A stretch of 64,000 nucleotides of DNA from Mobula hypostoma (Eukaryota), in the NCBI RefSeq assembly GCF_963921235.1, contig NC_086097.1, positions 130,264,001 through 130,328,000 on the forward strand. The letters run 5' to 3'. Below the pieces are notes generated by a model. That model did no database searches. It was not told where the DNA came from and saw only the letters and a list, made by a program, of their open reading frames with translations. Below, in pieces: positions 13,121 to 43,231 of the stretch. The position numbers were made by a program, and so were the translations under genes. Numbering within the stretch: position 1 is the first letter of the stretch; each line of letters starts with the position of its first letter.

Positions 13121-14975
13121 CATAGTCATAGTCATGGTCATACTTTATTGATCCCGGGGGAAATTTATAGAACCATAAATAGTTAAATAGTAATATGTAA
13201 ATTACACCAGTAAATTATGAAATAAGTCCAGGACCAGCCTATCGGCTCAGGGTGTCTGACCCTCCAAGGGAGGAGTTGTAAAGTTTGATGGCCACAGGCA
13301 GGAATGACTTCCTATGATGCTCTGTGCTGCATCTCGGAGGAATGAGTCTCTGGCTGAATGTACTCCTGTGCCCACCCAGTACATTATGCAGTGGATGGGA
13401 GACATTGACCAAGATGGCAACTTAGATAGCATCCTCTTTTCACACACCACCGTCAGAGAGATCCATCCCCACAACATCACTGGCCTTACGGATGAGTTTG
13501 TTGATTCTGTTGGTGTCTGCTACCCTCAGCCAGCTGCCCTAGCACACAACAGCAAACATGATAGCACTGGCCACCACAGACTCGTAGAACATCCTCAGCA
13601 TCATCCGGCAGATGTTAAAGGACCTCAGTCTCCTCAGGAAATAGAGACGGCTCTGACCCTTCTTGTAGACAGCCTCAGTGTTCTTTGACCAGTCCAGTTT
13701 ATTGTCAATTCATATCCCCAGGTATTTGTAATCCTCCACCATGTCCACACTGACCCCCTGGATGGAAACAGGGGTCACCGGTACCTTAGCTCTCCTCAGG
13801 TCTACCACCAGCTCCTTAGTCTTTTTCACATTAAGCTGCAGATAATTCTGCTCACACCATGTGACAAAGTTTCCTAATGTAGCCCTGTACTCAACCTCAT
13901 CTCCCTTGCTGATGCATCCAACTATGGCAGAGTCATCCGAAAACTTCTGAAGATGACAAGACTCTGTGCAGTAGTTGAAGTCCGAGGTGTAAATGGTGAA
14001 GAGAAAGGGAGACAAGCCAGTCCCCTGTGGAGCCCCAGTGTTGCTGATCACTCTGTCGGACACACAGTGTTGCAAGCACACGTACTGTGGTCTGCCAGGT
14101 AATCAAGAATCCATGATACCAGGGAAGCATCCACCTGCATCGCTGTCAGCTTCTCCCCCAGCAGAGCAGGGCGGATGGTGTTGAACGCACTGGAGAAGTC
14201 AAAAAACATGACCCTCACAGTGCTCGCTGGCTTGTCCAGGTGGGCATAGACACGGTTCAGCAGGTAGACAATGGCATCCTCAACTCCTAGTCGGGGCTGG
14301 TAGGCGAACTGGAGGGGATCTAAGTATGGCCTGACCATAGGCTGGAGCAGCTCCAGAACAAGTCTCTCCAGGGTCTTCATGATGTGGGAGGTCAATGCCA
14401 CCGGTCTGTAGTCATTGAGGCCGCTGGGGCGCGGCGTCTTCGGCACAGGGACGAGGCAGGACGTCTTCCATAGTACAGGAACCCTCCGGAGCCTCAGGCT
14501 CATGTTGAATACATGGTGAAGTATTCCACATAGCTGAAGGGCACAGGCTTTGAGCACCCTGATACTGACACCATCCAGTCCTGCAGCCTTGCTTGGGTTG
14601 AGACGTTTCAGCTGTCTTCTCACCTGTTCAGCCGTGAAGCCCACCTTGTTGGTTTCGTGTGGGGGAGGGGTATGGTCATGAGAGCAGGGTGGGGGACTGT
14701 GAGGAGGGGTAGGAGGGGAGAGTGGAATATGTGTTGGTTGGGGGCCGACCACAGATGGCTCATGTGGGGGATGGGCAGGGGTCACAATGTCAAATCTGTT
14801 AAAGAACAGGTTAAGTTCGTTGGCCCTGTCCACACTGCCTTCAGCTCCTCTGTTGCTAGTTTGCCGAAACCCAGTGATGGTCCTCATCCCCTTCTAGACC
14901 TCTCTCATGTTGTTCTGCTGGAGTTTCCACTCAAGCTTCCTCCTGTACCTGTCTTTAGCCTCCCTGATCCTGGCT
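13121..14975 (-). mobile_element. Rex1/Babar-clade LINE (second subfamily), 5'-truncated and frameshifted
   Basis: ORFs 14048-14887 (KAAGLDG, LNDYRPVALTSHIMKTLERL, FFDFSSAFNTI) and 13710-14081 (GAPQGTGLSPFLF, KFSDDSAIVG, YKYLG); (ATGACT)n tail at 13121-13142. Confidence 0.88.
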
Positions 14976-16164: not shown

Positions 16165-17100
16165 GGCAGGGATTCGTTAGTTAGGAAAATAGATAGGAGG
16201 TTCTGTGGGTGAGAACAAGATTCCTGGGTGGTATGTGCCCCCTGTGTGCCAGGGCCTGGAACATCTCAGACTGAGTCCTCAGCATTCTTAAGTGAGAGGG
16301 TGAACAGTCAGAGGTCATGGTCCATGAAGGTACCAATGACGTGGGTAGGATGAGTGACGAGGCTCTGCAAAGGGAGTTCAGGAAGTTAAGTGCTAAGTTA
16401 AAGGGCAGGACCTTCAGGGTTGTGATCTCAGGATTGCTACCTGTGCCCAGTGCCAGTGAGGCCAGAACTAGGAAGATTATCAGTTCAATACATGGTTAAG
16501 GAGTTGGTGTAGGAGGGAGGGCATAAGATTTTTGGATCACTGGGCTCTCTTCCAGGGAAGTTGGGTTTGCACCTGAACTGGAGGGGGGCTAATATCCTAG
16601 TGGGAAGGTTTGTTAATGCTGCATGGTGGGGTTTAAACTAGAGTTGCAGGGGGATGGGAACCAGAGTGCCAGAACAGTTAGTGGAGTGGTTGTGGAGGCA
16701 CCTGAGGTTGGCAAGACCTCAGACAAATCAGGAATCAAAAAGTTGAGCATGGTGCGACTAGTGTCATGAGATCTGTATATTTCAATGCAAGAAGTATCAT
16801 GGGAAAGGTGGATGAGCTCAGGGCATGGATCAACACCTGGAATTATAACATTGTAGCCATTAGTAAGACTTGGTTGCTGGAGGGACAGGACTGGCAGCTC
16901 AATATTATGGGATTTTATTCTTTTAGAAATGACAGAATGGGAGGAATTAAAGGAAGAGGGGTGGCATTACGAGTCAGGGAAAATGTCACAGCAGTGCTCC
17001 GTTAGCACAGACTGGAGAACTCGACTAGTGAGGTGTTATGTGTGGAACTGAGAAATGAGAAAGGTATGACCATGTTAAGGGGGCTATATTACGGACCAGT
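16165..17100 (+). mobile_element. CR1 LINE fragment spanning ORF1 (SGNH/GDSL esterase-like) and the ORF2 APE start
   Basis: ORF1 motifs VHEGTNDVG, VVISGLLPVP, GLHLNWRGANILVGRF; ORF2 motifs YFNARSIMGKVDELRAWI, VAISKTWL, GRGVALRVRE. Confidence 0.85.
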
Positions 17101-18550
17101 GATACTTACTCAGTGAGTGGTAGGGCACTGAGGAGTGTGATAGAACAAAGGAATCTGTGAATACAGATACATAATTCCTTGAAAGTGGTGTCACAGGGAG
17201 ACAGATTTGTAAAGAAAGCTTTTGGCATAATGGCCTTCATAAATCAATGTCTTGAGTACAAAAGATCAATGTTATATGTTGAAGAAGGGAGAGAAAATCT
17301 GCAGATTCTGGAAATCCAAGCAACGCACCCAAAATGCTGGAGGAACTCAGCAGCTCAGGCAGCATCTATGGAAAAGAATAAACAGTTGATGTTTCAGGCC
17401 GAGACCTTTCAGCAGGACCTAGATCCAATGCAGGCGGTGGAGAGAGAATCCTGGAGCTGTGGAAGCCACTGGGAGAGGGTCCCCAGGTACCCCCCTCATA
17501 GCGGAAAGCGTGGTGCATATAACACAGCTGGAGAAATAGTGGGAGAAGCGGTCGATTGAATGCAAGGACCTGGGGTCCTCAGGGGGTCTGGCTCCAGAAG
17601 CTTGAAAACTGATCTGGAAGCCATGTGGCACAAGATGGTAGCAAAGACATGTTTCCTGTGGTAGTGGGATCGGGTGGCCATATGTTTAAAGAGTCAGAGG
17701 ACAGCAGAGCTCACAGAAGGGGAGCTGTGAGAGAAAGTTTCACTAAACTCCTGTCGAAGGGAAGATTTGAACTTCTTCAGGGTAGGCATTCCTAGAAGAC
17801 ACTTTGCAGTGTAATAGTAGCAGAAAGACGAGAAAATCTGCAGATGCTGGAAATCCAAGCAACACACACAATATGCCAGAGGAATTCAGCAACCTGTTGA
17901 AGGGTCTTGGCCTGAAATGTCAACTGTTTACTCTTTTCCATCGATGCCGTCTCCAGCATTTTCTGTTACTTTGAAGTTAAATAAGACGTTGGTGAGTCTT
18001 AATTTGGATCATTGTGTGCAGTTTTGGTAACCTATAGGAAAGATGTAAACAAGGCTGAAAGAATGCAGAGAAAATTTACAAGTATGTTGCCGGGTCTGAA
18101 GCACCTGAGGTATAAGGAAAAGTTGAATAGGTTATGACTATATTCTTTAGAACATAGGAGAATGAGAGGAGATTTGCTAGAGGTATACAAAATTATGAGG
18201 GGTATAGATAGGGTAAATGCAAGAAAGCTTTTCCCACTGAAGTTGGGTGGGGCTACAACCAGAGGTCATAGCCACAGGGTGAAAAGTGAAAAGTTTAATG
18301 GGAACATGAGGGGAAACTTCTTCACTTAGAGGTCTAGGAGAGTGTGGAATGAGCTGTCAGCACAAGTGGTGCATGCAAACTCAATTTCAACATTCAAGAG
18401 AAGTTTGGATACATGGATAGTATGGATATGGTAGGCTGAGGTCCTGGTGCAGGTCAATGGGGGTAGGTAGTTTAAATGGTTTCAGCATGGACTAGATGGG
18501 CTGAACTGCCTGCTTCTGTGCTGTACTTCTCTCTGACTCTCTGACTCTGT
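17100..18550 (+). mobile_element. CR1 LINE 3' part interrupted by a Penelope insertion
   Basis: KKAFGIMAFINQCLEYK before 17284 continues after 17976 (cattgtgtgcagttttgg...gggaaacttcttcac...tggaatgagctg); ends in (ctctga)n. Confidence 0.75.
17285..17970 (-). mobile_element. Internally deleted Penelope-like element with 5' inversion
   Basis: Minus-strand order: partial pLTR (17825-17890), likely ORF N-terminal remnant (TCLCYHLVPHGFQISFQAS...TTLSAMR), pLTR with HHR-like motif (17290-17419). Inverted pLTR piece at 17893-17970. Flanked by TTGAAG at 17279-17284 and 17971-17976. Confidence 0.7.
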
Positions 18551-42611: not shown

Positions 42612-43231
42612 CAGACATCCCACCTCTCCCGGAAGTTCCGGGAGTCTCCCGCATATTAATAGTGGCTCCCTGATGCCCGCAAATTATATACAATATCACG
42701 GAAATCAATTTTTTTGAAAGCGAGCGAGAGAAAGCAAGCAAGCGAGCGAGAGAGCGAGCAAGAGAGAAAGCAAATGAGAGCACGCGAGTGAGAGCTAAAG
42801 CAAGCAAGAGCGCGTGAGCGAGAGAGCGAGAGAGAAAGCAAGCGAGAGCACTTGAGAGCGCGCGAGCAACCACAAGAGAGAGAGACAGCGCGCCATGGCA
42901 GAGTGTTCCAAAAAAAATAAAATGTACGTCACCCCAGACTACACTAAAGTGTACCCCTGCCTAATAGGGGTCAAAATAATGACAGTGTTGCTCGCTGCAC
43001 TGTTTGCAACAGTGACTTTTCTATTGCCCATGGTGGGTTAAGACTGTAAAAGACATGTTGAGTTGAGTTTAACAGGTGTCATTCGTTCATTAGCATAGCT
43101 AACGTTATTTAAACTAGCTGGCTGGCTGGTAAGGAGCTACTCTATTGCAGACATCCCACCTCTCCCGGGAGTGTCCTGCAAATTGATGGTGCTACCTCCC
43201 TGAAATGAGTTTTTGCAGGGTGGGATGTCTG
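42612..43231 (+). mobile_element. Non-autonomous hAT-like DNA transposon with BED zinc-finger remnant and 6-bp TSD
   Basis: TIRs CAGACATCCCACC / GGTGGGATGTCTG; TSD AGATGG (42606-42611, 43232-43237). Frameshifted peptide from ATG 42895: MAECSKK...YPCL...ARCTVCNSDFSIAHGG..DCKRHVE. (GA/GC)-rich simple repeat at 42720-42890. Confidence 0.8.

Follow-up and report, generated by a model that had tools for sequence, protein, structure and literature searches.

How the reverse transcriptase of a LINE is produced when its first open reading frame (ORF1) ends on a slippery sequence was the question raised by a CR1 copy in the window, i.e. the whole stretch of 64,000 nucleotides of Mobula hypostoma DNA analysed here. 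CR1 is a very common vertebrate LINE, and in birds, reptiles and cartilaginous fishes no other LINE clade is as abundant. To our knowledge, ORF2 translation is commonly explained by the L1 model for LINEs of all kinds. In the sections of PMC5381506 and PMC5009743 that were available, the mode of LINE ORF2 translation was treated as an open question. The first-pass annotation had pointed to a TTTAAAC heptamer at 16632-16638 in exact register before the ORF1 stop, and the codons were indeed found to be GGT TTA AAC TAG. A gag-pol-like fusion had been suggested from the window sequence, and the comparison of lineages presented here supported such a fusion. In esterase-type CR1, a programmed -1 frameshift would very probably yield an ORF1-ORF2 fusion. 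The basis in the sequence was the register of the heptamer, the conservation of its synonymous sites, the -1 phasing of ORF2, an open linker, the absence of an AUG in several families and a fixed G-run.

The element appeared to be a CR1-clade LINE with a type IV (esterase) ORF1, the clade being taken from the ORF1 type and the named homologues. The SGNH esterase domain was found in ORF1 of the intact relative L087 (PF13472, E 8.9e-18), to which the window remnant was aligned; the window ORF1 fragment by itself gave no Pfam match. ORF2 of the same relative was found to contain the APE endonuclease (PF03372 and PF14529); the reverse transcriptase domain was found in homologues (PF00078), and the open frames of L189 and L174 were 918 and 997 aa long, respectively. 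The 3' end contained a hairpin and short tandem repeats, with no poly(A) and no LTR. Among named ORF1 proteins, the one nearest to a young ray family was from Mobula hypostoma (95%), and named homologues, as well as the named ORF1 proteins ending in Leu-Asn, were found in rays, sharks, coelacanth, frogs, turtles, squamates and a hummingbird. The nearest known elements were those of vertebrate CR1 subgroup 7 with ORF1 type IVB (zinc-finger/leucine-zipper and esterase), as given in the available part of PMC4120745; shared with them were an ORF1 with a Cys-rich N-terminus and an SGNH esterase, an APE-RT ORF2, the 3' hairpin and the short tandem tail. The same part of PMC4120745 places the esterase ORF1 in vertebrate subgroups only, in contrast to a distant esterase-CR1 clade (L112, L118, L119, L122 and L130) that was found in very large protein clusters of up to 3544 members. 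Three CR1 proteins were filed under Pseudomonas aeruginosa (P0020), a Gammaproteobacteria MAG (P0331) and a frog parasite flatworm (P0083), which is probably host contamination of public assemblies.

On the plus strand of the window, the 3' part of ORF1 with the SGNH/GDSL esterase domain was located at 16169..16641; it was 5'-truncated and frame-broken and ended with W-G-L-N-stop, and an intact family-E ORF1 used as tblastn query was matched at 16171-16638 in four pieces. The heptamer T_TTA_AAC, in X_XXY_YYZ register and kept across the 23 lineages described below, was followed directly by the stop TAG (16639..16641) and then by a conserved run of five G nucleotides at 16649..16653 (+11 to +15 from the heptamer), a candidate stimulator. 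A variable linker (16642..16777), which belongs to the -1 frame where the element is an intact relative, was followed by the start of the ORF2 APE endonuclease (YFNARS...) at 16778..17098, where the first 110 ORF2 codons were present before an internal deletion. The piece at 17964..18540 contained the ORF2 end, the 3' UTR hairpin and the short tandem tail, as found by blastn, tblastn and 3'-end comparison; it is probably part of the same CR1 copy, split by the deletion and by later insertions.

The -1 frame of the window was read from the heptamer as FKLELQGDGNQ... for 45 codons and was closed by TGA at 16767-16769, the APE motif YFNARS being in another frame because of a 1-nt deletion at 16727/16728 that is specific to this copy. 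Among the alignable family copies, 51/56 were 1 nt longer at this site. The proposal that the -1 frame leads to the APE domain through one decay frameshift thus held for the single deletion that breaks the frame, and an in-frame 3-nt insertion, also specific to the window copy, has to be added to it. Two in-frame ATG triplets of the window were rejected as start codons and attributed to decay of the copy. The ATG at 16623 was at a CpG-type site, which in an unbiased sample of 36 copies was found to contain ACGG in 12, ATGG in 8, ACAG in 6 and other nucleotides in 10; at the site of the ATG at 16766, 69 copies were compared, of which 8 were unaligned, and CTG was found in 47/61 and ATG in 0/61 of the aligned copies. 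The window copy is a dead relic still carrying the signal. The junction 10-mer had 3 matches in the window against 0.33 expected, and those at 43108 and 47549 had no CR1 context by eye; a lone 10-mer in the window is not beyond chance, so the case stands on conservation between lineages. On the minus strand, a second CR1 (family B) was found at 39745-36490, 5'-truncated and with ORF2 nearly whole; its heptamer was decayed to T_TGA_AAC, which places a stop inside ORF1, and the -1 phase and an AUG-less linker were kept. The minus strand at 13300-14900 contained pieces of a more distant RT-encoding LINE with about 29% identity to CR1 ORF2.

The ray-genome DNA search gave 9565 candidates, of which 40 were scored and 30 were taken. 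To avoid selection on the junction, 40 of 150 matches to an upstream ORF1 peptide and 30 of 150 PF13472 matches were used, and more families were obtained with whole-protein queries and 30 longer stretches. Whole ORF1 queries ending in LN were used in four own-genome searches, which gives a small bias to intact ends, and many decayed copies were missed by the regular-expression parsing. The sequences flanking the junction separated eleven ray families (A-K), and in each family ORF1 was found to end in xxT TTA AAC followed by TAG or TAA. Of the ray loci, 174 had an esterase anchor after removal of duplicates; the heptamer and the stop were kept in 122 of these, the other 52 being decayed, truncated or interrupted. 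With the CLPGA motif as seed, 53 loci were obtained from metagenomes, most of them ending short of the junction; 12 loci with a readable junction were taken as lineages, making 23 with the ray families, and L123, L125, L133 and L143 (mutated or truncated) and L129, L145 and L147 (another type) were left out. In a midpoint-rooted tree the 11 ray families formed one clade, seven metagenome lineages clustered together and resembled proteins named from birds and reptiles (labelled bird-type here), and five were placed outside both groups.

Some elements showed features of their own. In L145 (2931-3200), an esterase LINE with a DGIHP motif, the APE motif was found in the ORF1 frame after TGA CTG, and the same TGA CTG was found in L147 and L129; this type possibly uses stop-codon readthrough in place of frameshifting. 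In the family B linker (L187:2000-2250), the CAGGGGGATGGGAAC motif was present twice. The later linker and the 3' end of family B matched family F (L207), of which the ORF1 differs, and this looks like an ORF1 swap through recombination just past the junction.

The first-pass annotation had also asked whether the heptamer is conserved at synonymous positions, and these were found to be held across the 23 lineages. The first T was conserved in 22/23 lineages against 8.4 expected from their own codon use, followed by the presence of TTA in 23/23 against 3.3 expected and AAC in 22/23 against 7.7 expected; since the lineages are related by descent, these counts are not independent trials, and a strong constraint is still shown. 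The exception for AAC was the decayed representative of family A, in which the family mode was AAC, and lineage L119 was an exception with G_TTA_AAC. The residue before Leu-Asn was found to vary between nine kinds (G, T, S, A, D, C, Y, H and F), its codons being GGT, ACT, AGT, GCT, GAT, TGT, TCT, TAT, CAT, TTT and TCG. The ORF1 stop was TAG in 17 lineages, TAA in 5 and TGA in 1. As a control, the codons of the conserved DGLHL block varied freely in the 23 lineages, and codon identity at same-residue sites was 988/1833 pairs for nearby positions against 274/306 for the last two codons. Within families the heptamer decayed like its flanks and was exact in 42/66 copies of family A; such decay is expected of dead copies and adds nothing to the case.

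The -1 phasing of the two frames was borne out in the ray copies. An APE motif could be located in 97 of the ray copies that retained the heptamer and the stop; it was in the -1 frame in 69 of these, in the +1 frame in 14 and in frame 0 in 14. Over the linkers of 19 lineages, 5 stops per 1062 codons were found in the -1 frame against 71 and 122 in the other two; two out-of-phase single copies, one truncated representative and one mis-anchored representative (L070, of which the phase is -1) were left out of this sum. The linker length peaked at 144, 186, 198, 210, 225 and 252 nt, the differences between families being multiples of 3, and a 27-nt in-frame linker deletion was common to 3 copies. 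Upstream of the heptamer, the -1 frame was closed within five codons in 14/22 lineages. Of the features of a canonical -1 frameshift site, the junction presented the heptamer in register at the ORF overlap, a -1 ORF that is open outside the broken window copy, and conservation of synonymous sites.

The ends of ORF1 proteins were examined over a wider range. Of 251 ORF1-like proteins, 167 ended 18-40 residues past a DGLHL-type motif, and the C-terminal tripeptide was compatible with a slip site (X_XXY_YYZ) in 120/167, against 1886/51509 (3.7%) for interior tripeptides and 2-31/167 at other offsets. LN ends were found in 112/167, and the preceding residue has a T-ending codon in 110/112. Seven proteins ended in QGN (P0112, P0120, P0157, P0158, P0163, P0177 and P0218) and two in SKN (P0199 and P0243), which on the protein alone fit G_GGA_AAC and A_AAA_AAC, respectively. 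According to the available part of PMC5009743, U_UUA_AAC, G_GGA_AAC and A_AAA_AAC are three of the four most shifty heptamers in mammalian ribosomes. Other esterase ORF1 proteins were found to end in FFR, FFG and FFN. The 47/167 proteins without a compatible end included long-tailed groups and those of DGLHP type, so that the scheme covers one large branch of the esterase LINEs and does not extend to all of them. No DNA of QGN-type elements was found in the viral contigs or genome contigs searched, and when a QGN protein was used as query against the ray genome, the families obtained were of LN type. At the ORF2 N-terminus, FKL was found in 8/73 and VKL in 1/73 proteins of the collection, and no GKL or KKL was found among these 73, most of which were cut by the gene caller. 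Two single database proteins (P0310 and P0387) ran uninterrupted from ...RYL-KL-VGQGG into the APE and had the look of joined frames; these are probably indel copies and not evidence of function.

The main alternative to the frameshift was termination-reinitiation as proposed for L1, in which the ribosome would restart in the -1 frame at a nearby AUG or near-cognate codon and the heptamer would aid by pausing or persist for another reason. The expectation that there is no conserved in-frame AUG before the APE was upheld, the linker being found to contain none in 21 copies of family B, 9 of family G and 5 of family J that were in phase. In the young family B, the ORF2 frame was closed 2 codons before the heptamer and then open for up to 918 codons; the APE started at codon 82, and in 6/7 long copies no Met preceded codon 215, which falls within the GDFN motif of the APE and is the first Met. 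Such a start codon was present in other lineages: family F contained a UAAUG stop-start in the ORF2 frame in 12/12 in-phase copies, linker codons 38 and 41 encoded Met in 5/5 copies of family E, and the bird-type L102, L103 and L106 contained an ATG 2 nt after the stop, which was absent in L105, L109 and L114. B, G, I, J, L112, L118 and L122 likewise lacked a stop-adjacent AUG; being found in some lineages and missing in others, the AUG is conserved neither in position nor in presence. Reinitiation predicts an open linker as well, and the available sections of the literature describe the L1 ORF2 start as AUG-independent (PMC5009743) or as made by reinitiation (PMC5381506). It does not predict that T, TTA and AAC are fixed, that the phase is always -1 or that QGN and SKN occur as alternative ends, and the codon after the stop, at +6 to +8, was found to vary (TTG, TGG, AGT, ACA, ATG, GTG, TCG, GAC, GCA and GCG), so that reinitiation as the general route is quite unlikely. 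In family F (e.g. L207 and L182) the slippery heptamer and the in-frame UAAUG were found together, and this family could use both routes.

A constraint on the protein, either on the C-terminal Leu-Asn or on F-K-L...G of the overlapping frame, or a non-decoding DNA or RNA signal at TTTAAAC serving recombination, nicking or protein binding, was judged very unlikely as the cause of the conservation. The Leu and Asn ends are invariant, overlapping frames can fix codons and TTTAAA is palindromic; against this, frame 0 by itself cannot fix synonymous sites, a constraint on the -1 frame upstream of the stop means that ribosomes already read that frame there, and a DNA signal needs neither the codon register with the ORF1 stop nor the switch to QGN or SKN. 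The joining of the ORFs, or the making of an ORF2-only mRNA, by splicing or transcriptional slippage was barely credible. The sequence ...ACUAG/G resembles a 3' splice site and TAG was followed by G or A in many lineages, but AG is absent with the TAA and TGA stops of 6/23 representatives and of family J, and the G-run is located 3' of the stop, so that a base inserted in it cannot join the frames. When four contig sets were compared at the junction, 6 joints were found among the matches listed, none of them GT..AG, a result that speaks neither for nor against splicing.

With the programmed frameshift as the preferred reading, the region downstream of the heptamer was searched for a stimulator. 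A G-rich block about 10 nt downstream had been noted, and GGGGGATGGG was found at 16649-16658, with 10 nt between the heptamer and its first base at 16649. The positions +11 to +15 were found to contain conserved G nucleotides in 22, 23, 21, 22 and 20 of the 23 lineages, respectively, and the positions +4 to +10 were variable. GGGG was present at this site in 20/23 lineages against a background of 1.7%, and third-position G exceeded codon use at +11 (22 against 11.2) and +14 (22 against 6.5). The run started at +11 in 80/137 copies and between +9 and +13 in 124/137.

The first-pass annotation had seen no strong pseudoknot, and no conserved downstream fold and no Rfam match was found. The mean fold z-score was +0.22, with 0/23 lineages below -2 in folding without pseudoknots; the window itself gave z -1.01 and no Rfam match, and no stem-loop or pseudoknot was found at the usual spacer of 5-9 nt. 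Local RNA structure was rejected as stimulator on these z-scores and the absent Rfam match, so that a local hairpin or pseudoknot is probably not the stimulator. The spacer between shift site and structure is usually 5-9 nt, and 10 nt for the protein-bound CCCANCUCC of PRRSV (PMC7618472, available part). A conserved short motif about 10 nt downstream, as in the protein-stimulated type of PRRSV and cardiovirus, was present here. An intramolecular G-quadruplex was considered on a by-eye check, in which several lineages were found to have a single G-run; G-quadruplexes stimulate shifting in synthetic constructs only, according to the part of PMC5009743 that was available. The preferred candidate stimulator is the adjacent stop together with the G-run as a putative protein-binding site at the mRNA entry channel, at slightly under an even chance.

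Long-range pairing of the G-run was ranked below the protein-bound reading. No common partner was found in ORF1 or ORF2 among 18 families or loci, and a second search for a long-range partner gave conserved Pro codons only. The pairing of the G-run with an arm of the 3' terminal hairpin was compared with other sites, about 87 in all, in 8 copies from 4 families, and its rank was between 1 and 8; its energy was better than all 40 shuffles in families B and G and failed to be so in E and F. The bird-type junctions paired best with the one bird-type arm, which was from a non-cognate element and sits in a stronger local hairpin. Pairing with this arm is a weak, mixed lead, and as the stimulator it is unlikely.

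In the proposed mechanism, with ORF1 ending on the conserved U_UUA_AAC and stop and ORF2 continuing in the -1 frame, slippage by a minority of ribosomes is likely. The majority would halt at the ORF1 stop and release ORF1p, and the minority would move one base back at U_UUA_AAC and produce an ORF1-linker-endonuclease-reverse transcriptase fusion. During the slip, tRNA-Leu and tRNA-Asn would re-pair from UUA AAC to UUU AAA, followed by CUA as the next codon, and the transframe product in the window family would read ...G-L-N-L-E-L-Q-G.... The ratio of ORF1p to fusion would be fixed as in gag-pol, and the enzyme may be packaged in cis with ORF1p. More tentatively, and with somewhat less than an even chance, CR1 and the distant clade may share a gag-pol-like fusion made by a fold-free -1 frameshift at the stop-adjacent heptamer, stimulated by a protein bound to the G-run or by a pair with the 3' hairpin. 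The heptamer U_UUA_AAC would then be switched to G_GGA_AAC or A_AAA_AAC in distant lineages. The putative binder of the G-run could be a host protein or ORF1p itself, and in the latter case a chromosomal element would regulate its own frameshift through a protein stimulator.

A full-text literature search gave no paper with a frameshift at the CR1 junction, and the original CR1 papers and Repbase reports may mention one. The available portions of PMC4120745, PMC4316615 and PMC11835228 described two ORFs and did not address the mode of ORF2 translation, the word 'frameshift' being absent from those of PMC4120745 and PMC4316615; no frameshift at the CR1 junction was described in those of PMC13405545 and PMC5633606. 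The frameshift at this junction is thus likely new in print. If CR1 frameshifts, its true ORF2 protein would be a fusion with the esterase ORF1, and ORF2 annotations that begin at the first Met would lose catalytic endonuclease residues, as with Met codon 215 of family B. In birds, reptiles and sharks, a large part of the genome would have been copied in a gag-pol-like manner, open to host frameshift inhibitors, and with a G-run that needs no structure a new class of frameshift stimulator would be added.

Among known systems, the Dictyostelium elements TRE5-A and TRE3-A, which are APE-type non-LTR elements of the L1 clade, depend on a -1 frameshift for the translation of ORF2 according to the available part of PMC5911963; they differ from CR1 in clade and host and have no esterase ORF1. 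The available part of PMC5009743 names HeT-A, TART and L1. Mammalian L1 resembles CR1 in its bicistronic LINE mRNA and low ORF2 output; unlike CR1, it contains an intergenic region or a variable overlap and is thought to reinitiate, with no fusion (PMC5009743 and PMC5381506, available parts). Retroviral gag-pol resembles CR1 in having the structural protein upstream and the polymerase in the -1 frame. The coronavirus sites of IBV type contain the same U_UUA_AAC heptamer in the same register (PMC5009743, available part), whereas CR1 differs from viral sites in the stop directly after the heptamer and in that no stem-loop or pseudoknot was found at 5-9 nt. PRRSV nsp2, with nsp1beta/PCBP acting on CCCANCUCC, shares with CR1 a short unstructured conserved motif 10 nt past the shift site (PMC7618472, available part); in CR1, unlike in PRRSV, the motif is a G-run, the heptamer is canonical and the binder is putative. 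The CR1 junction would represent recoding of a known type in a LINE clade for which no description of it was found, and its candidate stimulator is unusual in being free of structure.
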